Origin: an uncultured Bacilli bacterium
GTDB taxonomy: Bacteria > Bacillota_I > Bacilli_A > RF39 > UBA660
Reading direction: 5' to 3'
Length of the DNA stretch: 64,000 nucleotides
NCBI GenBank assembly: GCA_934096715.1
Contig: CAKOMQ010000001.1
Coordinates: 40,611 to 104,610 of the forward strand
The position numbers and the translations under genes are program-made. Positions within the stretch are counted from its first letter, which is position 1. Each line of letters opens with the position of its first letter. Below the pieces are notes generated by a model. It saw only the letters and a list, made by a program, of their open reading frames with translations, made no database searches and was not told the DNA's origin. This document shows positions 16,463-63,661 of the stretch, one piece after another.

Positions 16463-16499
16463 AATATCACCTACAAACAAACGTTTTATTACTAAATAT

Positions 16500-16580
16500 A
16501 AAAAATGCACACACAAACAGGGATTGATGTGGCTGCTGTATTCCTACTCTGACCAGATTACAATATATTTGTTGTGCAAT
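16500..16580 (-). ncRNA. ffs: Small (4.5S-type) signal recognition particle RNA
   Basis: Minus-strand read: UGCACAACAAA..CUGGUCAGAGUAGGAAUACAGCAGCCACAUC..UUUGUGUGUGCA followed by UUUUUU. Domain IV core GGUCAG-AGUA-GGAA-UAC-AGCAGCC matches E. coli GGUCAG-GUCC-GGAA-GGA-AGCAGCC with compensatory stem changes. The termini pair with each other. Adjacent to tadA and dnaX as scr is in Bacilli. Confidence 0.85.
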
Positions 16581-16583
16581 ATA

Positions 16584-16611
16584 ATTGTATCATATATTTT
16601 AATCATTACAA
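16584..16611 (-). promoter_or_regulatory. Sigma-A type promoter for ffs
   Basis: On the minus strand: -35 TTGTAA (16611-16606), 16 nt spacer, extended -10 TGATACAAT (-10 hexamer at 16589-16584). This puts the start about 6 nt before UGCACAAC. Confidence 0.6.
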
Positions 16612-16625
16612 TAATTTTTCAGCAA

Positions 16626-16641
16626 TGTTTCACGTGAAACA
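16626..16641. promoter_or_regulatory. parS site 1 (perfect TGTTTCACGTGAAACA), type I flank
   Basis: Exact 16-mer, read directly from the sequence. Confidence 0.9.
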
Positions 16642-16670
16642 TAAAAAATATAATTTAAAAATTACAAAAA

Positions 16671-16686
16671 TATTTCCCGGGAAATA
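16671..16686. promoter_or_regulatory. NBS-type palindrome 1 (perfect TATTTCCCGGGAAATA)
   Basis: Exact 16-mer, 45 bp centre-to-centre from parS 1. Confidence 0.85.
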
Positions 16687-16717
16687 TTTTTTTAACCAAT
16701 TCTCTAGAAATTTGTCT

Positions 16718-16731
16718 GGGAAATATTTCCC
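16718..16731. promoter_or_regulatory. Everted-NBS palindrome 1 (GGGAAATATTTCCC)
   Basis: Exact 14-mer, 46 bp from NBS 1. Confidence 0.8.
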
Positions 16732-16791
16732 AAAGCATTAAATTATATATAGTGAATAATAATTATTAAACAAATATTTAACTATTAACAA

Positions 16792-16807
16792 TGTTTCACG
16801 TGAAACA
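16792..16807. promoter_or_regulatory. parS site 2 (perfect), type II flank
   Basis: Exact 16-mer, read directly from the sequence. Confidence 0.9.
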
Positions 16808-16939
16808 TAGAATATAATATGATCTAATTTTAACTAATTATTAATTAATATAAAATAAATATAACATTAAAAAAGCTATTATTATTAACACTAAATTATA
16901 TTATTAATTATTATTTAATAAACAATTGATTTTCAACAA

Positions 16940-16955
16940 TGTTTCACGTGAAACA
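16940..16955. promoter_or_regulatory. parS site 3 (perfect), type I flank
   Basis: Exact 16-mer, read directly from the sequence. Confidence 0.9.
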
Positions 16956-16986
16956 TTAAAAATATAATTTAAAAATAATTGAAAAT

Positions 16987-17002
16987 TATTTCCCGGGAAA
17001 TA
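16987..17002. promoter_or_regulatory. NBS-type palindrome 2 (perfect)
   Basis: Exact 16-mer, 47 bp from parS 3. Confidence 0.85.
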
Positions 17003-17031
17003 TTTTTTACCAATTCTCTAGAAATTCGCTT

Positions 17032-17045
17032 GGGAAATATTTCCC
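17032..17045. promoter_or_regulatory. Everted-NBS palindrome 2
   Basis: Exact 14-mer inside the 22 bp perfect palindrome GCTTGGGAAATATTTCCCAAGC. Confidence 0.8.
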
Positions 17046-17217
17046 AAGCATTAAATGAATTATAATTTCCATTAACAAAAAATAAATAATCGTCTAACTA
17101 TTAATAATAATGAGTGTGAAACAAAATAAGTAATTATACACTAAAAAATTTAATTATACCTATATTTAATATTCTGTATTTGAAAATAACAATTAATAAA
17201 GAGCTATGCAATGTCAA

Positions 17218-17233
17218 TGTTTCACGTGAAACA
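17218..17233. promoter_or_regulatory. parS site 4 (perfect), type II flank
   Basis: Exact 16-mer, read directly from the sequence. Confidence 0.9.
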
Positions 17234-17360
17234 TATGATATAATATGATCTAATTTTAACTAATTATTAATTATATATAAAATATATATAACATTAAAGC
17301 TATTATTAATACTAAATTAAATTTATATTTATTATTTAATAAGCAATAAAATTTCAACAA

Positions 17361-17376
17361 TGTTTCACGTGAAACA
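17361..17376. promoter_or_regulatory. parS site 5 (perfect), type I flank
   Basis: Exact 16-mer, read directly from the sequence. Confidence 0.9.
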
Positions 17377-17406
17377 TTAAAAATATAACTAAAAAATGAA
17401 CAAAAT

Positions 17407-17422
17407 TATTTCCCGGGAAATA
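17407..17422. promoter_or_regulatory. NBS-type palindrome 3 (perfect)
   Basis: Exact 16-mer, 46 bp from parS 5. Extended palindrome AAAATTATTTCCCGGGAAATAATTTT. Confidence 0.85.
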
Positions 17423-17453
17423 ATTTTATTACCAATTCTCTGGAAATTCGTAT

Positions 17454-17467
17454 GGGAAATATTTCCC
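17454..17467. promoter_or_regulatory. Everted-NBS palindrome 3
   Basis: Exact 14-mer, 46 bp from NBS 3. Confidence 0.8.
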
Positions 17468-17527
17468 AAAGCATTAAATTAAATATAGTAAATAATTAAT
17501 ATTAAACAAATGATTAACTATTAACAA

Positions 17528-17543
17528 TGTTTCACGTGAAACA
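17528..17543. promoter_or_regulatory. parS site 6 (perfect), type II flank
   Basis: Exact 16-mer, read directly from the sequence. Confidence 0.9.
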
Positions 17544-17671
17544 TATGATATAATATGATCTAATTTTAACTAATTATAAATATAAATAAAATAATATAAC
17601 AATAAAGTTATTTTTATTAATACTAAATTATATAAATGATTACTATTTAATAAACTATAATTTTTCAACAA

Positions 17672-17687
17672 TGTTTCACGTGAAACA
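17672..17687. promoter_or_regulatory. parS site 7 (perfect), type I flank
   Basis: Exact 16-mer, read directly from the sequence. Confidence 0.9.
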
Positions 17688-17717
17688 TTAAAAATATAAT
17701 TTAAAAATAAGTAAAAT

Positions 17718-17733
17718 TATTTCCCGGGAAATA
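17718..17733. promoter_or_regulatory. NBS-type palindrome 4 (perfect)
   Basis: Exact 16-mer, 46 bp from parS 7. Confidence 0.85.
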
Positions 17734-17764
17734 ATTTTATTACCAATTCTGTAGAAATTCGCTT

Positions 17765-17778
17765 GGGAAATATTTCCC
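17765..17778. promoter_or_regulatory. Everted-NBS palindrome 4
   Basis: Exact 14-mer inside a 22 bp perfect palindrome. Confidence 0.8.
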
Positions 17779-17949
17779 AAGCATTAAGTGAATTATAATT
17801 TTCATTAACGAAAAATAAATAATCGTTAACTATTAATAATAATGAGTGTGAAACAAAATACGTAATTATACACAAAAAAATCTAATTATACTTACATTTA
17901 ATATTTTTTATTTAAAAATAGAAATTAACAAAGAACTATATATTGCCAA

Positions 17950-17965
17950 TGTTTCACGTGAAACA
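17950..17965. promoter_or_regulatory. parS site 8 (perfect), hybrid flanks (left type II-long, right type I)
   Basis: Exact 16-mer. Flank comparison suggests a recombinant junction. Confidence 0.9.
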
Positions 17966-17995
17966 TTAAAAGTATAAATTAAAAATGAGTAAAAT

Positions 17996-18011
17996 TATTT
18001 CCCGGGAAATA
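17996..18011. promoter_or_regulatory. NBS-type palindrome 5 (perfect)
   Basis: Exact 16-mer, 46 bp from parS 8. Confidence 0.85.
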
Positions 18012-18041
18012 ATTTTTAACCGATCTTCTAGAAATTTACTT

Positions 18042-18055
18042 GGGAAATATTTCCC
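18042..18055. promoter_or_regulatory. Everted-NBS palindrome 5
   Basis: Exact 14-mer, 45 bp from NBS 5. Confidence 0.8.
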
Positions 18056-18195
18056 AAAAAGTATAATTTTAATTTCACCACTATCTATTAAAGGCGTTAG
18101 GCATTAATATAATTTAAAAAATAATAAATGTTGAGAATTTATTAAAATAATAAAACAAACGTATTTTCGTAATCTCTTTTAAATTTAATTAAAAT

Positions 18196-18211
18196 TATTT
18201 CCCGGGAAATA
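18196..18211. promoter_or_regulatory. NBS-type palindrome 6 (perfect), no partner parS
   Basis: Exact 16-mer. Confidence 0.85.
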
Positions 18212-18242
18212 ATTTTATTACCAATTCTCTAGAAATTCGCTT

Positions 18243-18256
18243 GGGAAATATTTCCC
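18243..18256. promoter_or_regulatory. Everted-NBS palindrome 6
   Basis: Exact 14-mer, 46 bp from NBS 6 and 28 bp from NBS 7. Confidence 0.8.
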
Positions 18257-18262
18257 AAAAAG

Positions 18263-18292
18263 AAAAAAATATTTCCCGGGAAATATTTTTTT
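18263..18292 (-). terminator. Intrinsic (bidirectional) terminator downstream of gyrA, built on NBS 7
   Basis: 30 bp perfect palindrome with a GC core, flanked by A and T runs on both sides. Begins 7 nt after the gyrA stop. Confidence 0.7.
18270..18285. promoter_or_regulatory. NBS-type palindrome 7 (perfect), core of the gyrA terminator hairpin
   Basis: Exact 16-mer inside the 30 bp perfect palindrome AAAAAAATATTTCCCGGGAAATATTTTTTT. Confidence 0.85.
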
Positions 18293-18298
18293 AATAAA

Positions 18299-20758
18299 TT
18301 ATTTATCTGGAGTAGAATTTTCATTATCAACAGAAACAAATTCATCTTCTTCAACTAAACTAACAGTAGCTACTTTTTGATCGTCTTTTAAATTAATTAA
18401 CCTTAATCCTTGTGTTGCACGACCAAGTGTTGATATTTGACTTAAAGGCATCTTCATTGTCATACCAGTATTACTCATAAGAATAACATCCATGTTATCA
18501 GCTACTACTTTAATATCAATCAACATACCATTTTTTTCAGTAACATTAAGAGCTTTTACTCCCTTACTACCACGCTTAGTTTGCCTAAATTCAGAAACAT
18601 TAGTAATTTTACCATAACCTTTTTCAGTGACAATTAAAATTTTATTATCTTCATTAACAACTTCAGAACAAATAGTAATACCACCATCATTGTTTATACC
18701 GCGAACTCCAGAAGCAGTTCTACCCATAGGTCTTATATCTTGTTCATCAAATTTAACTACTTTACCAGAACTAGAACCGAGCAATATAAGATCATTATCG
18801 TTTATCTTCTTAACTCCTATTAATTCATCATTTTCTTTTAAATTAATACAAATTTTACCAGATTTACGAATACTATCAAACTCACTTATTGGAGTCTTTT
18901 TAACAATACCCTTTTTAGTAGCCATAAACAAATATTTGAATTTTTCTTCTCTATCAATACAAATAATTGAATTTATGTTTTCATCTTTCTCAATTTGTAA
19001 TAAATTGATAATAGGAATACCCTTAGATGTTCTACTAAATTCAGGAATTTCATATCCTTTTATACGATATACCTTACCTTTATTAGTAAAGAATAAAACA
19101 TGATCATGCGTACAAATATTTAGAATTTTATCCACCGCATCTTCATTATTAGTAGTTAATCCTTTTACGCCTACTCCTCCACGATTTTGAGTTCTAAATG
19201 TATCATTAGGAACTCTCTTGATATAATTATTTTTAGTTAACATAATCATACAATTTTCTTCAGGAATAAGTGATTCATCTTCAATATATTCAACAGCAGT
19301 CATATCGATTTTAGTTCTTCTATCATCAGCATATTTATCCTTAATTTCAGTTAATTCAGCTTTTATTATGCCATAAACTCTTTCATCAGAAGCTAAAATA
19401 GCACGTAAATCTTGAATTTTTTCTAGTAATTCATTAAGTTCATTCTCTATTTTGTCTCTTTCTAATCCAGTTAATCTTCTTAACTTCATCTCTAAAATTG
19501 CATCAGATTGAAGTTCACTTAATCCAAAGTTTTCCATCAAGCCTTTTTTAGCTACATCATCTGTTTTAGATGCTCTAATAAGCTTAATTACCTCATCAAT
19601 ATGATCTAAAGCAATCTTTAACCCCTCTAATATATGAACTCTTTTTTCTGCTTTGTCTAGCTCAAATCTCGTTCTTCTAATAACTATTTCTTTTTGATAT
19701 TCAATGTACTTAGCAATAATATCTTTTAATCCTAATGTCTTAGGAACACCTTTATCAAGCATTAAGAATATAATACCAAAATTATTTTGAAACTGAGTAT
19801 GTTTATACAAATTATTTAAAACAACTTGTGGATTAGCATCCTTTTTTAATGTAATAGTAATTTTAATACCTGTTTTAAGATCGGTATGATAATCAGCAAT
19901 TCCATCTATAGTCTTATTATGAACTAACTCAGCAACTTTATTTTTAAGATCCATAGTATTAATTCCATATGGAACTTCATCTATTATAATATAGTGTTTA
20001 CCATTCTTTTCTTCAATAGTTGCTTTACTTCTTATAGTAATAGATCCACGACCTGTTTCATAAGCTTTTTTAATACCACTATTTCCAAGAATAATGCCCC
20101 CGGTAGGAAAATCAGGACCTTTTATGTATTGCATTAATTCTGCAACAGTAATATTAGGATTATCAATATAATGAATACAGCCATCAATGACTTCTCCTAA
20201 ATTATGTGGTGGTATATTAGTAGCCATACCAACAGCAATACCCATAGTACCGTTAACCAAAATATTTGGATACCTAGATGGTAAAATAGATGGTTCTTTC
20301 TCATTTTCATCAAAATTTGGTACAAAATCGACTGTGTCTTTATTAATATCTCTTAATAACTCCAAAGAAATCTTTGAAAGTCTAGATTCGGTATAACGCA
20401 TCGCTGCTGCACCATAACCTTCAATATTACCAAAGTTACCATGTCCATCAACTAACATGTATCTATAACTAAAATCTTGAGCCATTCTCACCATAGCTTC
20501 GTATATTGAACTATCTCCATGTGGATGATATTTACCCATTACATCTCCGACAATACGTGCCGATTTACGATGTGGTTTATCAGGTGTATATCCTGATTCA
20601 TACATAGACCATAATATTCTTCTATGAACTGGTTTTAAACCATCTCTTAAATCAGGAAGAGCACGTGATATGATAACACTCATTGAATAGTCAAGAAATG
20701 ATGTTTCAATTTCATTAACTATATTATTTTCTTCTAATCTATCCTTACTGTGATCCAT
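18299..20758 (-). CDS. gyrA: DNA gyrase subunit A
   Basis: 819 aa. Active-site motif AAMRYTE, C-terminal beta-pinwheel repeats. Confidence 0.97.
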
Positions 20759-23868: not shown

Positions 23869-24315
23869 TTAAAGAAATTTCAACTTAAAATTATTATTTA
23901 CAATATTTTTTAAAAGAACACATTTAATTATCAAATGATAAAATGAATTAAGTGAAATATTTAACATTATGTCAAAATCATTAGATAATTTAACCACTAA
24001 ATAATCATTATTTTTGTTGATATTTACTATCTTATCAACATTTATTAAAATAAACTCATTATTACGTATACTACCAATACATATAAATATCTTATTGTTA
24101 TCAATAAAAATTGGGTTTTTATATTTAGAATCTAACACTTTATTAACAAACTCTTTTCTACCTTTAAAACTACTACCATAAACTATACAACTATTATCTA
24201 AAATCTTAGTTATCTTTGTATTAGTATTAATTAATCTATTAGTCTCTCTAATAATTATTTTATTTTCATCTTTTTTTAAATACAATGTGTCTTCATTAAC
24301 AATATATTTTTCCAT
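23869..24315 (-). CDS. comK: ComK-family competence transcription factor
   Basis: ILDNSCIVYGSSFKGRKEFVNKVLDSKYKNPIFID..ISLNSFYHL aligns with B. subtilis ComK IVDRSCRFFGSSYAGRKAGTYEV..HKPPIMVD..ISYNSFENQ (recalled from memory). Start set at ATG 24315 behind GGGGGA. The ORF-track extension to 24369 is hydrophobic junk. Confidence 0.7.
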   Translation of the reverse strand: MEKYIVNEDTLYLKKDENKIIIRETNRLINTNTKITKILDNSCIVYGSSFKGRKEFVNKVLDSKYKNPIFIDNNKIFICIGSIRNNEFILINVDKIVNINKNNDYLVVKLSNDFDIMLNISLNSFYHLIIKCVLLKNIVNNNFKLKFL

Positions 24316-24400
24316 ATTATTCCCCCGTGAGTAACTACTATAACAAATTAAGATTAAAAAAATTGTCAAAAAAAATATTAAATAACCAAATTTAATATTT

Positions 24401-25637: not shown

Positions 25638-26993
25638 TTACAACTTTGCTTTAATTTCTTTCAACGTATTATTCAAAAGATCATTATTTGTTAAATCTTT
25701 TTTTATTTTCTCACAACTTGCTACTACCGTCGAATGATCTCTTCCGCCAAATTCTAAACCTATTTTAGCCAAATTTTCATCAGTTTCAATTCTACAGAGA
25801 TACATTGCTATATGTCTTGGTTTTGCAATATTATTACTTCTCTTTTTGCTTTTCAAATCTTCAACTGTTATTTTATAATAATCAGCTACTACTCTTTGAA
25901 TATGTGAAATAGTATTTTCTTGATAAATATTAGTATTTAAATAATCATTTAATGCTTCAACCGCAAAGTCTAAATCAATTCTATCGGGTAAATTTAAAGC
26001 TGTATATACAAGCAATCTATTTATAGTACCAAAAATATGTCTTATATCGGTAGTAGAAGCATTTGCAATGTATTCAATAACATCCTTATTAACTCTATCT
26101 TTTATACTTGAATTATTAATTTTTTGTTTTATTAGTTCACATCTTAGTTCAAAGTCTGGTGGATAAATATCTACTGGTAATCCCCATGTAAATCTACTTC
26201 TAAGTCTCTCTTCAATCTTTTTTAAATCATCTGGAGATCTATCACTAGATATAATTATCTGTTTATTAGCTTGATGTAAAGCATTAAAAGTATGAAAAAA
26301 TTCTTGTTGAGTAAGCTCAGCCCCTACCAAAAATTGAATATCATCTATTATTAATACATCAACATTACGATATTTACTTTTGAAGTTATTCGCATAGTTG
26401 ATTGACTGTGTTCCTTTCTCAATTTTAGATATATTTGAAAATTCCGATACATAATCATTACTTGTTGTATACAAAACTTTTTTATTAGAGTGTTCTGTAA
26501 TATAATTTCCAATTGCATGCATTAGATGAGTTTTTCCAACCCCACTTCTACCATAAATAAAAAGTGGATTATGTATTGTGCCCGGTGTTTGAGCAACATT
26601 CATTGCAGATACAAATGCGAGTCGATTGGACTCCCCAACTATAAAGTTATCAAAATTTAATTCAGGATTTAAGTTAGTATTCCACTCAACTATATTTTCT
26701 TCTTCTTCCTTTGTACTATTAAACTCTTCAATAGTATTAATTTCATCATTAGTTAAGAAATTAATTTCATAATTAATTCCTGTTAGCGAAAATAAAGTTT
26801 CTTCCATTAAATCTAAGTGACTAGTTAATGCAGTTTTATAAACTGGAATTGGAACCTTAATATTTATAACCTTATCATCCATTTTTAAAAGTTCAATATC
26901 CTTAAACCATATATTATAGGTAGTCGGATTTACTACTTTTTCAATTTCACTTAAAAAGACTTTAAAGATCTCATCTGTTTTCAAATCCACCAC
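25638..26993 (-). CDS. dnaA: Chromosomal replication initiator DnaA
   Basis: 451 aa. Walker A GRSGVGKTHL, C-terminal GGRDHSTV DNA-binding signature. GTG start. Confidence 0.97.
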   Translation of the reverse strand: MVDLKTDEIFKVFLSEIEKVVNPTTYNIWFKDIELLKMDDKVINIKVPIPVYKTALTSHLDLMEETLFSLTGINYEINFLTNDEINTIEEFNSTKEEEENIVEWNTNLNPELNFDNFIVGESNRLAFVSAMNVAQTPGTIHNPLFIYGRSGVGKTHLMHAIGNYITEHSNKKVLYTTSNDYVSEFSNISKIEKGTQSINYANNFKSKYRNVDVLIIDDIQFLVGAELTQQEFFHTFNALHQANKQIIISSDRSPDDLKKIEERLRSRFTWGLPVDIYPPDFELRCELIKQKINNSSIKDRVNKDVIEYIANASTTDIRHIFGTINRLLVYTALNLPDRIDLDFAVEALNDYLNTNIYQENTISHIQRVVADYYKITVEDLKSKKRSNNIAKPRHIAMYLCRIETDENLAKIGLEFGGRDHSTVVASCEKIKKDLTNNDLLNNTLKEIKAKL

Positions 26994-33453: not shown

Positions 33454-34413
33454 GTGAATAGAGAGTCACAAATTTTACAAGTGCCTATTGAAGATATTAT
33501 ACCTAATCGTTTTCAACCACGATTAAATTTTGACGACTCTTCATTACAGGAGTTAGCGGCATCAATTAAACAACATGGTATAATTCAACCACTAGTATTA
33601 AGAAAAACAGGAGATAAATATGAAATAATTGCTGGAGAAAGAAGATATAAAGCATCTCAAATAGCTGGTCTTGCAAGTGTTCCCGCAATTATAACTCAAA
33701 TGGATGATAAAAAATCTGCTGAAGTAGCAATTGTTGAAAATATTCAAAGAAGAGATTTATCTAGTATAGAAGAAGCAAGAAGTTATAAAGCATTACTAGA
33801 TAAGGGATACCTAACTCAAGAAGATTTAGCTAAACAAATGGGTATTAGTCAATCGCAAATTTCTAATAAACTAAGATTATTAACTTTAACTGAAGAAGTT
33901 CAACAAGCTTTGATGGAAGGAAAAATTTCCGAAAGACACGCACGAAGTCTACTTCAAGTAACAGATCCAGAAGAGCAAAAAAAATGGTTAGAAAAAATAA
34001 TTACAGAAAGACTAACTGTAAGAGATTTAGAGAAAAAGATTAAAGGAAAAGAAGATAATAATCAACCCATAATTAATATTAATCCAAACATTGAAGATAT
34101 AGTTAAAAATGCTCATGACATAGTAAATTCTTCGATTACTAAACAAACAGAATCAGCTACTCCTGAAGAGAAAATGGAAAACAAATTCTTTAACCCTTTA
34201 GAAAGTGTTTCAGTAAATATGAATTTAAATGATACTCCAGGTGAAGAAGTAGAATTACTAGATTTTGAATTACCTTCTAATATAATTAGAGATGATAAAA
34301 ATGAATTAATTATTAAAATTAAAAATTATATTAATAGTTTAAATAATAATAGAATTAAAATTAATGAGTCAGATATTGACAATAAACATCAAATTATTAT
34401 TACAATAGAATAA
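33454..34413 (+). CDS. noc: ParB/Noc-family CTPase DNA-binding protein, Noc-type recognition helix, no N-terminal membrane-targeting helix
   Basis: 319 aa. GTG start behind AGGGGAAG. NRFQPR and GERRYKA ParB boxes. HTH region SQSQISNKLRLL..ISERHARSLL and LSSIEEA resemble B. subtilis Noc rather than Spo0J (recalled from memory). Sits directly after rsmG, as noc does. Confidence 0.75.
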   Translation: MNRESQILQVPIEDIIPNRFQPRLNFDDSSLQELAASIKQHGIIQPLVLRKTGDKYEIIAGERRYKASQIAGLASVPAIITQMDDKKSAEVAIVENIQRRDLSSIEEARSYKALLDKGYLTQEDLAKQMGISQSQISNKLRLLTLTEEVQQALMEGKISERHARSLLQVTDPEEQKKWLEKIITERLTVRDLEKKIKGKEDNNQPIININPNIEDIVKNAHDIVNSSITKQTESATPEEKMENKFFNPLESVSVNMNLNDTPGEEVELLDFELPSNIIRDDKNELIIKIKNYINSLNNNRIKINESDIDNKHQIIITIE

Positions 34414-61444: not shown

Positions 61445-61648
61445 TAGTTGATTAAGAAGTTAATGAGTAAGTTAATAATCAATTATAGAGAGTTGATGGT
61501 TGGTGAAAATCAATATTGTGTTTAACTGAATATGGTTAATGGAGTCAAATCGGTTAAGACCGTTATATCTATAAGTGTATGAACTATTCATAAAATAAGG
61601 TGGTACCGCGGGTATTAACTCGTCCTTTGTTTTATGAATTTTTTTATT
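61445..61648 (+). promoter_or_regulatory. T-box riboswitch leader (tRNA-sensing transcription attenuator)
   Basis: Stem I elements GAGTAA, AGAGAG and GGTGAAAA. Specifier-loop candidate TGAATATGG. T-box sequence AAGGTGGTACCGCG (61597-61610). Terminator CATAAAATAAGG..CCTTTGTTTTATG followed by a T7 run. Confidence 0.85.
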
Positions 61649-61659
61649 GGAGGCTAATT

Positions 61660-62151
61660 ATGGAAAGATATTTTGAAAAAATAAGTTTTGATGAATTTAA
61701 GAAAAGTATTGATAATAATATTGAACTATACAATAGTTATGAATTACCAGTTAGAAAAACAAAGTATAGTGCTGGATATGATTTCATTGCTATCAAAGAT
61801 TATGAGATTAAACCAGGAGAAATAGTTAAAATTCCTACTGGATATAAAGCTAAATTTAATGAAGATGAAATGCTTATGCTTATAGTTCGTAGCAGTATTG
61901 GCTTTAAGTATAACGTACGGATGTGTAATCAAATAGGTATCATAGAAAGTGACTATTACAATAATGAAAGTAACGAAGGTCACATGTTTGTAGCACTTCA
62001 AAATGAAGGAAAAGAAATATTTAAAATAAATAAAGGAGATGCTTATATCCAAGGGATATTCACTAAATTTCTAACTTGTGGAGATGAAGTAAGTGATATA
62101 AGAACTGGTGGTATGGGCAGTACTAATAGAAAGAAGGATAAAAATGAATAA
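61660..62151 (+). CDS. dut: dUTP diphosphatase (trimeric dUTPase family)
   Basis: GIIESDYYNN and C-terminal RTGGMGST motifs. Start at ATG 61660 behind GGAGG. The ORF-track start 61600 lies inside the T-box terminator. Confidence 0.8.
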   Translation: MERYFEKISFDEFKKSIDNNIELYNSYELPVRKTKYSAGYDFIAIKDYEIKPGEIVKIPTGYKAKFNEDEMLMLIVRSSIGFKYNVRMCNQIGIIESDYYNNESNEGHMFVALQNEGKEIFKINKGDAYIQGIFTKFLTCGDEVSDIRTGGMGSTNRKKDKNE

Positions 62152-63661
62152 AAAATTTTATATAACAACTCCTATATATTATCCAAGTGCGGAATTTCAT
62201 ATAGGGCATTGTTATACAACAATAATTGCTGACGCAATTGCAAGATACAAAAGATTAGATGGCTATGATGTATATTTTCAAACTGGAACAGACGAACATG
62301 GTTTAAAAATAGAAAATAAAGCTAAAGAAAAAGGAGTTACTCCAAAAGAATATGTTGACGTTATCATTGATAATGCTAAAGACTTATGGAAACAACTAGG
62401 AATATCATATGATTACTTTATAAGAACAACTGATGAAGATCACAAAAAAAGAGTACAAAAAATATTTAATATCCTTTATGAAAAAGGGGATATTTACAAA
62501 AGTGAATATGAAGGACTTTACTGTGTACCATGTGAATCTTTCTGGACTTCAACTCAAGCTAAAGATGGACTATGTCCTGATTGTGGTAGACCAGTTGAAC
62601 TAGTAAAAGAAGAATCTTACTTCTTTAAACTAAGTAAATATCAAAAGAAATTAGAAGATTTTTATGAAGAAAATCCGAATTTCTTATTGCCGCTTTCACG
62701 TAAGAATGAAATGCTAAATAACTTTATTAAACCAGGACTAGAAGATTTATGCGTATCTAGAACTAGTTTCAAATGGGGAATACCTGTTAGCTTTGATCCT
62801 AATCATGTTATATATGTTTGGATAGATGCTTTAACAAATTATATTACTAGTTTAGGCTACCCCGATAATTTAGATAAATTTAATAAATATTGGCCAGCTG
62901 ACTTACATCTTGTTGGTAAAGAAATAGTAAGATTCCATGCTATAATCTGGCCTTGTATACTTATGGCCTTAGATTTACCACTACCTAAGCAAGTATTTGG
63001 TCATGGTTGGTTAATTGTAGATGGCGGAAAAATAAGTAAAAGCAAAGGAAATTATAAAGACCCAAGAGAGTACATTAATACATATGGTGAAGATGCTGTA
63101 AGATACTTTGCACTAAGAGAGGTTCCTTTTGGAAGCGATGGAAATTTTTCGGAAGATGCTTTAATTCTAAGAACAAATGGAGATTTAGCTAACGTTCTTG
63201 GAAATCTAGTTAGTAGAACTATTCAAATGGCAATTAAATATTTTGATGGAGTAGTCGAAAATAAACAAGTAAGTGAAGAGATAGATGAAGATTTAATAAA
63301 TAGTAAGAATTCGTTAAAAGGTTTAGTAGATGAAAAAATGAGTTCTTACAAAGTTAACGAAGCCTTAGAAATAATATTTGAAAACTTAAGAAAATGTAAT
63401 AAATATATTGATGAAACAGAACCATGGGTATTAAGTAAAGATGTTAATAAATTAGAAAGACTAGAAACCATTATTTATAATTTACTAGATAATATTAGAG
63501 TAAGTGCTATATTACTTGAACCATTTATTCCTGAAACAAGCAAAAAAATATTAAAATCATTAAACTTCGAAAGTAATGATTTCTCTTCATTAAATGCAGT
63601 TCATCTAAAATATGATGTTGGTTTAGAAAAGCCAGAAAATCTATTTAATAGGATTCAATAA
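62144..63661 (+). CDS. metG: Methionyl-tRNA synthetase (short form without C-terminal tRNA-binding domain)
   Basis: HIGH-type FHIGH, KMSKS-type KISKS, zinc knuckles CVPCESF and CPDCGRP. Start at ATG 62144 (MNKKFYITTPIYY). Confidence 0.95.
   Translation: MNKKFYITTPIYYPSAEFHIGHCYTTIIADAIARYKRLDGYDVYFQTGTDEHGLKIENKAKEKGVTPKEYVDVIIDNAKDLWKQLGISYDYFIRTTDEDHKKRVQKIFNILYEKGDIYKSEYEGLYCVPCESFWTSTQAKDGLCPDCGRPVELVKEESYFFKLSKYQKKLEDFYEENPNFLLPLSRKNEMLNNFIKPGLEDLCVSRTSFKWGIPVSFDPNHVIYVWIDALTNYITSLGYPDNLDKFNKYWPADLHLVGKEIVRFHAIIWPCILMALDLPLPKQVFGHGWLIVDGGKISKSKGNYKDPREYINTYGEDAVRYFALREVPFGSDGNFSEDALILRTNGDLANVLGNLVSRTIQMAIKYFDGVVENKQVSEEIDEDLINSKNSLKGLVDEKMSSYKVNEALEIIFENLRKCNKYIDETEPWVLSKDVNKLERLETIIYNLLDNIRVSAILLEPFIPETSKKILKSLNFESNDFSSLNAVHLKYDVGLEKPENLFNRIQ

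Follow-up and report, generated by a model that had tools for sequence, protein, structure and literature searches.

The subject of this analysis is a 64,000-nucleotide stretch of DNA (hereafter the window) from an uncultured gut Bacilli bacterium (contig CAKOMQ010000001.1), and in particular the ~1.7-kb non-coding spacer between gyrA and ffs, the gene of the small signal recognition particle (SRP) RNA. The spacer holds eight perfect parS sites interleaved with seven perfect Noc-binding sites (NBS), and the window encodes a Noc-like protein of the ParB family that is the predicted reader of the NBS. We propose, with a probability of roughly 65%, that the spacer is a compact origin-proximal composite centromere, which would serve as a landing pad for two paralogous ParB-type clamps. 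The individual parts, namely parS, NBS and the ParB/Noc proteins, are known; what departs from the published arrangement is the clustering of NBS together with parS in one spacer, in addition to a Noc-type protein that lacks the N-terminal helix. Full-text literature searches turned up no account of naturally occurring arrays that mix parS and NBS.

Eight parS and seven NBS palindromes in one intergenic spacer

The palindrome TGTTTCACGTGAAACA is present in exactly eight copies in the window, each with zero mismatches, which together span 1.34 kb of the spacer (Table 1); allowing up to two mismatches brought no further match in the 64 kb. By chance, 0.03 copies would be expected, and none of 100 shuffled sequences reached eight copies. 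All eight are embedded in CAATGTTTCACGTGAAACAT, an 18-bp palindrome, and agree perfectly with the consensus TGTTNCACGTGAAACA of the 16-bp chromosomal parS palindrome, given as TGTTTCAC-GTGAAACA by Jalal et al. 2020 (PMC7383237). The distance from the last parS to dnaA is 7.7 kb when measured to the 3' end of the gene and 9.0 kb when measured to its start. Given the position of dnaA and a sign change of the GC skew at ~27 kb of the window, which jointly mark oriC, the array sits 8-9 kb inside the left replichore. The preliminary description had reported eight perfect, intergenic and origin-proximal consensus parS sites ~9 kb from dnaA, in the gyrA-ffs spacer, each extending to an 18-bp palindrome and occurring nowhere else in the 64 kb, and our analysis agrees with it on all of these points.

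A second palindrome, TATTTCCCGGGAAATA, is interleaved with the eight parS in seven perfect copies (0.02 expected by chance), and is absent from the rest of the 64 kb even at two mismatches. It corresponds to the published NBS consensus TATTTCCC-GGGAAATA (Jalal et al. 2020, PMC7383237), and we therefore take it as a perfect NBS. Within the 64-kb window, all seven NBS fall within 1.6 kb instead of being dispersed, and those of the relatives are likewise clustered. Five of the parS have an NBS 45-47 bp further on, centre to centre, and the other three parS belong to a different module. The two unpaired NBS adjoin gyrA.

The spacer as a whole is a higher-order repeat, in which a super-unit of ~733 bp with four parS occurs twice, in addition to a period of 311 bp. 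The repeat copies are 60-89% identical in the sequence that flanks the NBS, whereas the NBS themselves are still perfect. A contig from another sample (L008) carries the same array, with two mismatches over 3.6 kb, and stops inside the array past five parS, so that the copy number derived from short reads is not fully secure.

The same spacer contains the everted palindrome TGGGAAATATTTCCCA, composed of two NBS half-sites in swapped order, in six perfect copies that are confined to the spacer within the 64 kb. Every NBS except the last is followed by ACCAATTCTCTAGAAATT (six copies in the spacer, at 16695-16712 and five more positions, and none elsewhere in the window), and then by the everted palindrome in the form (GC)TTGGGAAATATTTCCCAA(GC), of up to 22 bp. 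Among the other loci, a single copy of the motif was found, in L125, and the six-copy set is confined to the species of the window.

Each B-type parS is trailed by an invariant stretch of ~30 bp, ATATAATATGATCTAATTTTAACTAATT (16808-16840, 17234-17266 and 17544-17576 of the window), which in two of the three copies includes the extended -10-like element TGATATAAT. Judging from its sequence, this stretch may be a promoter overlapped by parS.

Two other functions of the spacer were considered and rejected. It contains only short spurious open reading frames (ORFs), none longer than 55 residues, no Rfam family above threshold except ffs at its edge, and no terminator-like site, which leaves no support for a coding or RNA role. 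An oriC or DnaA-box cluster was dismissed as well, with only one 1-mismatch DnaA box in the array and no excess over shuffled sequences in the whole window.

Table 1. Features of the gyrA-ffs spacer and of the genes referred to in the text, in window coordinates
Feature	Coordinates	Strand	Basis or remark
gyrA-ffs spacer, non-coding, with composite array	16587..18298	none	repeat and ORF analysis
ffs (small SRP RNA), left border of array	16491-16586	minus	Rfam family match
gyrA, right border of array	18299-20758	minus	
dnaA, oriC marker jointly with GC-skew switch	25638-26993	minus	
Noc-like ParB-family gene, 319 residues, GTG start, directly after rsmG	33454-34413	plus	Pfam ParB_N and HTH_ParB
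parS 1, A-type module	16626..16641	none	perfect TGTTTCACGTGAAACA
parS 2, B-type module, followed by invariant 30 bp	16792..16807		perfect TGTTTCACGTGAAACA
parS 3, A-type module	16940..16955		perfect TGTTTCACGTGAAACA
parS 4, B-type module	17218..17233		perfect TGTTTCACGTGAAACA
parS 5, A-type module	17361..17376		perfect TGTTTCACGTGAAACA
parS 6, B-type module	17528..17543		perfect TGTTTCACGTGAAACA
parS 7, A-type module	17672..17687		perfect TGTTTCACGTGAAACA
parS 8, A-type module	17950..17965		perfect TGTTTCACGTGAAACA
NBS 1, centre 45 bp from parS 1	16671..16686	none	perfect TATTTCCCGGGAAATA
NBS 2	16987..17002		perfect TATTTCCCGGGAAATA
NBS 3	17407..17422		perfect TATTTCCCGGGAAATA
NBS 4	17718..17733		perfect TATTTCCCGGGAAATA
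NBS 5	17996..18011		perfect TATTTCCCGGGAAATA
NBS 6, no partner parS	18196..18211		perfect TATTTCCCGGGAAATA
NBS 7, no partner parS, 13 bases from gyrA ORF end at 18299	18270..18285		perfect TATTTCCCGGGAAATA
Everted palindrome, copy 1	16717..16732	none	TGGGAAATATTTCCCA
Everted palindrome, copy 2	17031..17046		TGGGAAATATTTCCCA
Everted palindrome, copy 3	17453..17468		TGGGAAATATTTCCCA
Everted palindrome, copy 4	17764..17779		TGGGAAATATTTCCCA
Everted palindrome, copy 5	18041..18056		TGGGAAATATTTCCCA
Everted palindrome, copy 6	18242..18257		TGGGAAATATTTCCCA

Conservation of the array across related genomes

Scanning one genome per GTDB species with the pattern GTTTCACGTGAAAC-N17-47-ATTTCCCGGGAAAT returned at least 120 species representatives, almost all of them low-GC (23-31%) metagenome-assembled genomes (MAGs) labelled Bacilli, Erysipelotrichaceae, Mycoplasma sp. 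or Tenericutes. At least 117 loci (117 of the 120 listed) have the sites in the gyrA-tadA-dnaX-ybaB-recR spacer, and the GyrA identity of the scanned loci to the window is mostly 54-77%. As this pattern demanded parS and NBS together, a second sample was added, which was picked from metagenomes by GyrA similarity alone. A GyrA identity of 62% or higher and 1 kb or more of downstream DNA define its 42 loci, in which sites were counted within 3 kb after gyrA. Both site types are present in 32 of the 42 loci, parS only in seven, NBS only in one and neither in two; in sum, 40 loci carry sites and 33 carry NBS. In this sample parS is about five times commoner than NBS, which is often represented by a single copy. 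Altogether, almost the whole clade has a compact parS array behind gyrA, joined by NBS in about four fifths of the cases, and the species of the window, with its eight parS and seven NBS, stands at the rich end.

The preliminary description had singled out the gyrA-ffs spacer for comparison with relatives, and parS sites are indeed kept behind gyrA, in at least 117 of the scanned loci as well as in 39 of the 42 loci picked by GyrA. It had also read the block as a strong compact centromere. Given that a compact parS array is conserved at the exact position across the clade, this reading is reasonable, but it overlooked the composite nature of the array, with its seven NBS and six everted palindromes.

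The architecture of the arrays varies from species to species. The number of sites per array ranges from four to more than 20, and many arrays strictly alternate between the two site types, such as that of L100, which can be written as (NBS-36-parS-46) x10. L043, L051 and L044 are further examples, with units of 84, 76 and 126 bp, respectively. Units in the relatives measure 76-127 bp, with one parS and one NBS in each. Between species the repeat spacers are unrelated and both palindromes are perfect, a pattern pointing to selection that holds the two palindromes perfect while the spacers change. Several relatives have an NBS no more than 100 bp away from the gyrA stop codon. A blastn search of a plasmid collection gave no match to the array.

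Some relatives (L170, L171, L177 and L152) have parS only, without NBS. Conversely, the apparent lack of parS in the four NBS-only loci inspected (L183, L184, L196 and L201) was an artefact of requiring GTTTCACGTGAAAC, for they carry the canonical variant GTTCCACGTGGAAC; with a relaxed parS pattern, one NBS-only locus is left. The loci L184, L196, L204, L183 and L170 contain the symmetric parS variant GTTCCACGTGGAAC or mixed T/C-variant halves beside perfect NBS.

The boundary of the array trait is the group with 51-53% GyrA identity, as neither parS nor NBS was found in its 13 loci or in seven more distant loci. In L185-L198 of this group, there is no parS or NBS within 14 kb, and the three loci checked (L186, L194 and L198) have kept the gene order dnaA-dnaN-recF-gyrB-gyrA.

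Two further occurrences lie outside the array. In L129 and L130, a lone perfect NBS is located at position ~773, in the dnaN-comK spacer, and the Noc-like protein of this relative is 59% identical to that of the window; a few NBS thus exist outside the array, close to oriC. In a Clostridia MAG of 41% GC (L010, positions 1-560), an intergenic region adjoining lipoate-ligase and glycine-cleavage genes holds a cluster of three perfect NBS and two parS, of which one is perfect and the other has a single mismatch. Mixed clusters may accordingly occur outside both the Bacilli clade and the gyrA locus.

A Noc-like protein without the membrane-targeting helix

The only ParB-family gene of the 64-kb window encodes the Noc-like protein; it faces a gene for a penicillin-binding protein (PBP) and is located ~15 kb from the array, and neither soj nor spo0J was found beside it in the window. 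Among the solved structures, the protein scores 191 bits against 7ng0, 191 against 7nfu and 183 against 7ol9, all of Noc, and 179 against 6sdk, B. subtilis Spo0J. The aligned stretches read GISQSQISNKLRLLTL...KISERHARSL in the window protein, GKGQSTIANKLRLLKL...KITERHARAL in Noc and GKSRPHIANHLRLLTL...TLSMGHGRTL in Spo0J. At the four specificity positions, defined by Q173, K179 and/or K184, and R201 in Caulobacter numbering, the window protein has Q-K-T-R, compared to Q-K-K-R in Noc and R-H-T-G in Spo0J; it thus carries the specificity residues of Noc. The B. subtilis Spo0J and Noc sequences that served as local queries agree with these PDB alignments over the aligned part of each.

The protein belongs to a very large family of Noc-like proteins. 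Q-K-x-R is found in all 120 homologues listed, which are all orthologues by synteny where checked, and in 135 of the 138 readable representatives of 50%-identity clusters among the best 150, the other three having QRNR (twice) and QLNR. All of these best 150 matches belong to the same Noc-like family, with no Spo0J-type protein among them. According to a published mutant library, one lysine at position 179 or 184 is enough for Q173 and R201 to read NBS, parS binders invariably have R173, and dual-specificity variants do occur, mostly with T or S at position 201 (PMC7383237). By elimination, QKAR would be among the NBS-preferring variants.

In the predicted model of the protein, the N-terminal and DNA-binding region is confident, residues 201-280 form a disordered linker, and a helix and a β-hairpin make up a small domain at the C-terminus. 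A Foldseek search with this model ranked Noc first. Superposition of the predicted DNA-binding domain onto that of Noc in complex with NBS (6y93) yielded a TM-score of 0.88-0.89 and a root-mean-square deviation (RMSD) of 1.9 Å, compared to a TM-score of 0.66-0.71 and an RMSD of 2.8 Å for the better chain of ParB-parS (6s6h). In addition to the ParB/Noc fold and the helix-turn-helix domain, the protein possesses the N-terminal motifs GERR and ENxQR, conserved in ParB and Noc, which we take to be the CTP-binding motifs, and the Noc-like motifs PNRFQPR and SERHAR.

By contrast, the N-terminal amphipathic membrane-targeting helix is absent. Only 16 residues precede PNRFQPR in the window protein, compared to 39 in B. 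subtilis Noc, and there are in-frame stops upstream of the GTG start. Noc depends on this highly conserved helix for its function (PMC4331003), and without it the Noc-like protein should not work as a classical Noc.

The C-terminal part of the protein (residues 201-319, 34054-34413 of the window) includes the disordered linker (pLDDT<50) and two conserved motifs, IPNKFFN[YF]LEDE..NM and EEIE[ML]LDF. The length of the linker is hugely variable across the Noc-like family, whose members range from 227 to 982 residues. The two motifs are candidates for partner-binding elements, and may alternatively bind the membrane.

Two discrete site classes and a possible helical register

Across the 120 loci, 750 sites fit the pattern NTTTCNCGNGAAAN, of which 397 are pure parS, 346 pure NBS and seven single-base variants. 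Among the 750 there is neither a site made of one parS and one NBS half nor a symmetric hybrid, a count from related species that is uncorrected for kinship. The absence of hybrids fits two discrete homodimeric specificities.

The distances between the centres of adjacent parS and NBS (unique per species, n=233) peak near 25, 36, 47, 58 and 69 bp, with a best period of 11.0 bp (R=0.29) that none of 2000 jitter controls reached. With one distance per species, R rises to 0.38, again unmatched by 2000 jitter controls, whereas parS-parS distances show no periodicity. Provisionally, this phasing suggests that the two proteins, when bound, favour a particular rotational orientation towards each other.

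Weighing one reader against two

Several observations weigh against the proposed landing pad for two clamps, most of them concerning the parS reader. Neither tblastn (E≤10, with a provisional B. subtilis query in the case of Soj) nor an unfiltered profile hidden Markov model (HMM) detected another ParB-like ORF or a Soj-like one in the 64 kb. Neither a parS-type ParB nor ParA/Soj was found in the 10 kb to the left of the window, and tblastn found no parS-type ParB or Soj in ~2 Mb of origin-region DNA from 214 loci of relatives. In L129, L133 and L134, whose Noc-like proteins have 52-59% full-length identity, rsmG is followed by the Noc-like gene and an opposite-strand gene, with no soj or spo0J; the same layout recurs in L215 and L216, which match at 73% and 58%, respectively, over the first 200 residues. 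Wherever a Pfam match is present, the opposite-strand gene encodes a PBP. With the same layout lacking soj and spo0J in the relatives, the second reader is postulated rather than seen. The NBS reader has its own reservation, for the Noc-like protein scores 274.6 bits against the NCBIfam Noc model (TIGR04285), under the 315-bit cut-off, and its NBS specificity is therefore a prediction. Moreover, the lack of hybrid sites is weakened as evidence, as two substitutions per half-site would be required, and both the hybrid-site and the phasing statistics are provisional in that they take no account of the shared ancestry of the species. Finally, the species-specific everted palindrome finds no explanation in the landing-pad model.

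Part of this evidence would fit a different reading, in which canonical ParB has been lost and its role has passed to the helix-less Noc-like protein. As the only centromere protein, this would bind parS as well as NBS, either alone or through a relaxed specificity. Every origin region examined has a single ParB-family gene, none of the relatives checked has soj-spo0J behind the noc-like gene, which is its canonical position, the protein lacks the defining membrane helix of Noc, the NBS cluster at the origin as parS do, and dual-specificity variants are on record in the published mutant library. We nevertheless consider a single reader unlikely. The parS binders of that library invariably have R173 and the dual variants mostly T or S at 201, whereas the Noc-like family has Q...R; a dual reader should tolerate mixed sites, yet none was seen among the 750; and the ratio of parS to NBS of ~5:1 in the GyrA-picked sample would be odd for a sole reader of the NBS type. 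As parS binding needs R at the first specificity position according to published mutagenesis, and the Noc-like protein has Q there, the parS sites would call for a second reader. ParB without ParA is known from S. aureus and S. pneumoniae (PMC7333895), which makes it plausible that canonical ParB is encoded elsewhere in the genome.

Much less probable still is a pure parS centromere as put forward in the preliminary description, in which the NBS-like and everted palindromes would be hitch-hiking parts of the repeat with no protein bound. The arrays without NBS in L170, L171, L177 and L152 do make parS the more universal component, but hitch-hiking is hard to reconcile with NBS that stay perfect amid diverged flanking repeats, that recur in 33 of 42 loci, including species with otherwise unrelated repeat units, and whose predicted cognate reader, of the Noc type, has its gene 15 kb away. 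We give equally little weight to a transcriptional control region, at which ParB-family proteins would regulate ffs-tadA-dnaX or gyrBA, or act as a roadblock or boundary, as KorB or other ParB-like regulators do, instead of serving segregation. parS 1 does lie ~15 bp upstream of a promoter-like element facing ffs, the -10-like TGATATAAT stands right after B-type parS, and NBS come close to the gyrA stop in several relatives and to within 13 bases in the window. However, promoter-like matches number 33 against 22.9 for shuffled sequences, an excess of about two standard deviations in AT-rich DNA; four to more than 20 sites with tandem amplification far exceed the needs of an operator; and the neighbourhood of oriC is where parS centromeres are classically located (PMC7333895). 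The least credible reading of all is a selfish or neutral repeat, be it a minisatellite or of the kind of miniature inverted-repeat transposable elements (MITEs), or an assembly artefact. The higher-order tandem repeat and the contig that breaks inside the array would fit it, whereas the recurrence of identical palindromes with unrelated spacers at this locus in over 100 species, the restriction of the motifs to this spacer within the 64 kb, the same sequence in a second sample and the lack of a plasmid match all speak against it.

A proposed composite centromere

We therefore retain the landing pad for two clamps as the working model. The eight parS would load a canonical parS-specific ParB, presumably encoded outside the ~75 kb around oriC, and the seven NBS would load the Noc-type paralogue encoded beside rsmG, in line with its sequence. 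From what is known of the family (PMC7333895, PMC7383237, PMC4331003), each protein would nucleate on its own palindrome as a homodimer. Binding of cytidine triphosphate (CTP) would then close the clamp, which would slide onto the flanking DNA and spread around the origin region. The dense spacing of the sites would give a high loading rate, resulting in a dense mixed complex over gyrBA, dnaX-recR and oriC. Such a mixed nucleoprotein complex ~9 kb from oriC would mark and organize the origin for segregation, probably including the loading of SMC by ParB, and the effector step of the Noc-like protein may run through the two conserved short motifs in its disordered linker. The array itself would grow and homogenize by tandem duplication, while selection would keep both palindromes perfect.

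Two more far-reaching forms of the idea can be envisaged, and we regard the pair of them as possible, if doubtful. Either the clade has no canonical ParB and a helix-less NBS-type paralogue runs the centromere, which would represent an intermediate from ParB to Noc that acquired the DNA specificity of Noc before the helix and the dispersal of sites; or ParB and the Noc-like protein co-assemble in a fixed helical register to form a heterotypic two-clamp partition complex.

As paralogous systems, ParB-parS and Noc-NBS are familiar from textbooks; they diverged through two base pairs and four residues and are regarded as separate: parS usually marks the origin, and scattered NBS couple division to segregation. 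The arrays described here offer a natural test case for the evolution of Noc from ParB, namely for the order in which DNA specificity, membrane binding and site dispersal arose, and raise the possibility that two families of CTP clamps cooperate on one centromere. They also bear on what drives the number and clustering of parS (PMC7333895). Because the arrays are short enough to synthesize and the proteins small enough to purify, direct tests are feasible without culturing the organism.

Other features of the window

A ComK-family gene is located between dnaN and recF (23869-24369, minus strand), as also in L129, L130 and L134, an unusual place for a competence regulator. A T-box leader scoring 113 bits lies on the plus strand at 61445-61630, upstream of an ORF at ~61600-63661. 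Genes for Spo0A, SpoIIR, YabP and YabQ are present (11233-12006 of L131; 39119-39637 and 5178-5773 of the window), and the gut organism, whose genome is probably ~1.5 Mb with 25% GC, thus appears to be a spore former.

Comparison with known systems

In B. subtilis, the parS sites are scattered over a wide origin region and are mostly imperfect. The array described here has in common with this ParB(Spo0J)-parS system the 16-bp palindrome, the proximity to the origin, the multiplicity of sites and the expected CTP-dependent loading and spreading (PMC7333895, PMC7383237). It differs in that all the sites are perfect, intergenic, arranged in tandem within 1.34 kb and interleaved with NBS, and in that no parS-type ParB or Soj was found near oriC.

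In B. subtilis, noc directly follows rsmG, the very place that the gene of the Noc-like protein occupies. The resemblance to the Noc-NBS systems of B. subtilis and S. aureus extends to the NBS consensus, the Q, K and R residues and the motifs PNRFQPR and SERHAR. In the known arrangement, parS lie near oriC and NBS occur all around the chromosome, with the exception of the ter region (PMC7383237). Here, by contrast, all seven NBS of the window lie within 1.6 kb beside oriC, and the protein has no helix, scores below the Noc cut-off and contains a long linker with two new motifs.

Dense parS clusters of other phyla, which are also found in Corynebacterium glutamicum and Myxococcus xanthus, span many kilobases. 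They likewise have many copies near oriC, with one site type and one ParB, whereas two site types are packed here into less than 2 kb. Streptomyces coelicolor and Listeria innocua have 20-23 parS, and the variation in parS copy number is an acknowledged open question (PMC7333895).

The preliminary description had also likened the block to a plasmid-style iterated centromere, a resemblance that holds in form only. The sopC centromere of F consists of tandem repeats, each with one inverted repeat, and tandem units with a palindrome are indeed shared by the present arrays (733 bp and 311 bp here, 76-127 bp in the relatives). In contrast to the plasmid centromeres, with no adjacent parAB and no similarity to plasmid sequences, the array is a fixed chromosomal feature of the dnaA-gyrA-dnaX region that is built from two palindromes.

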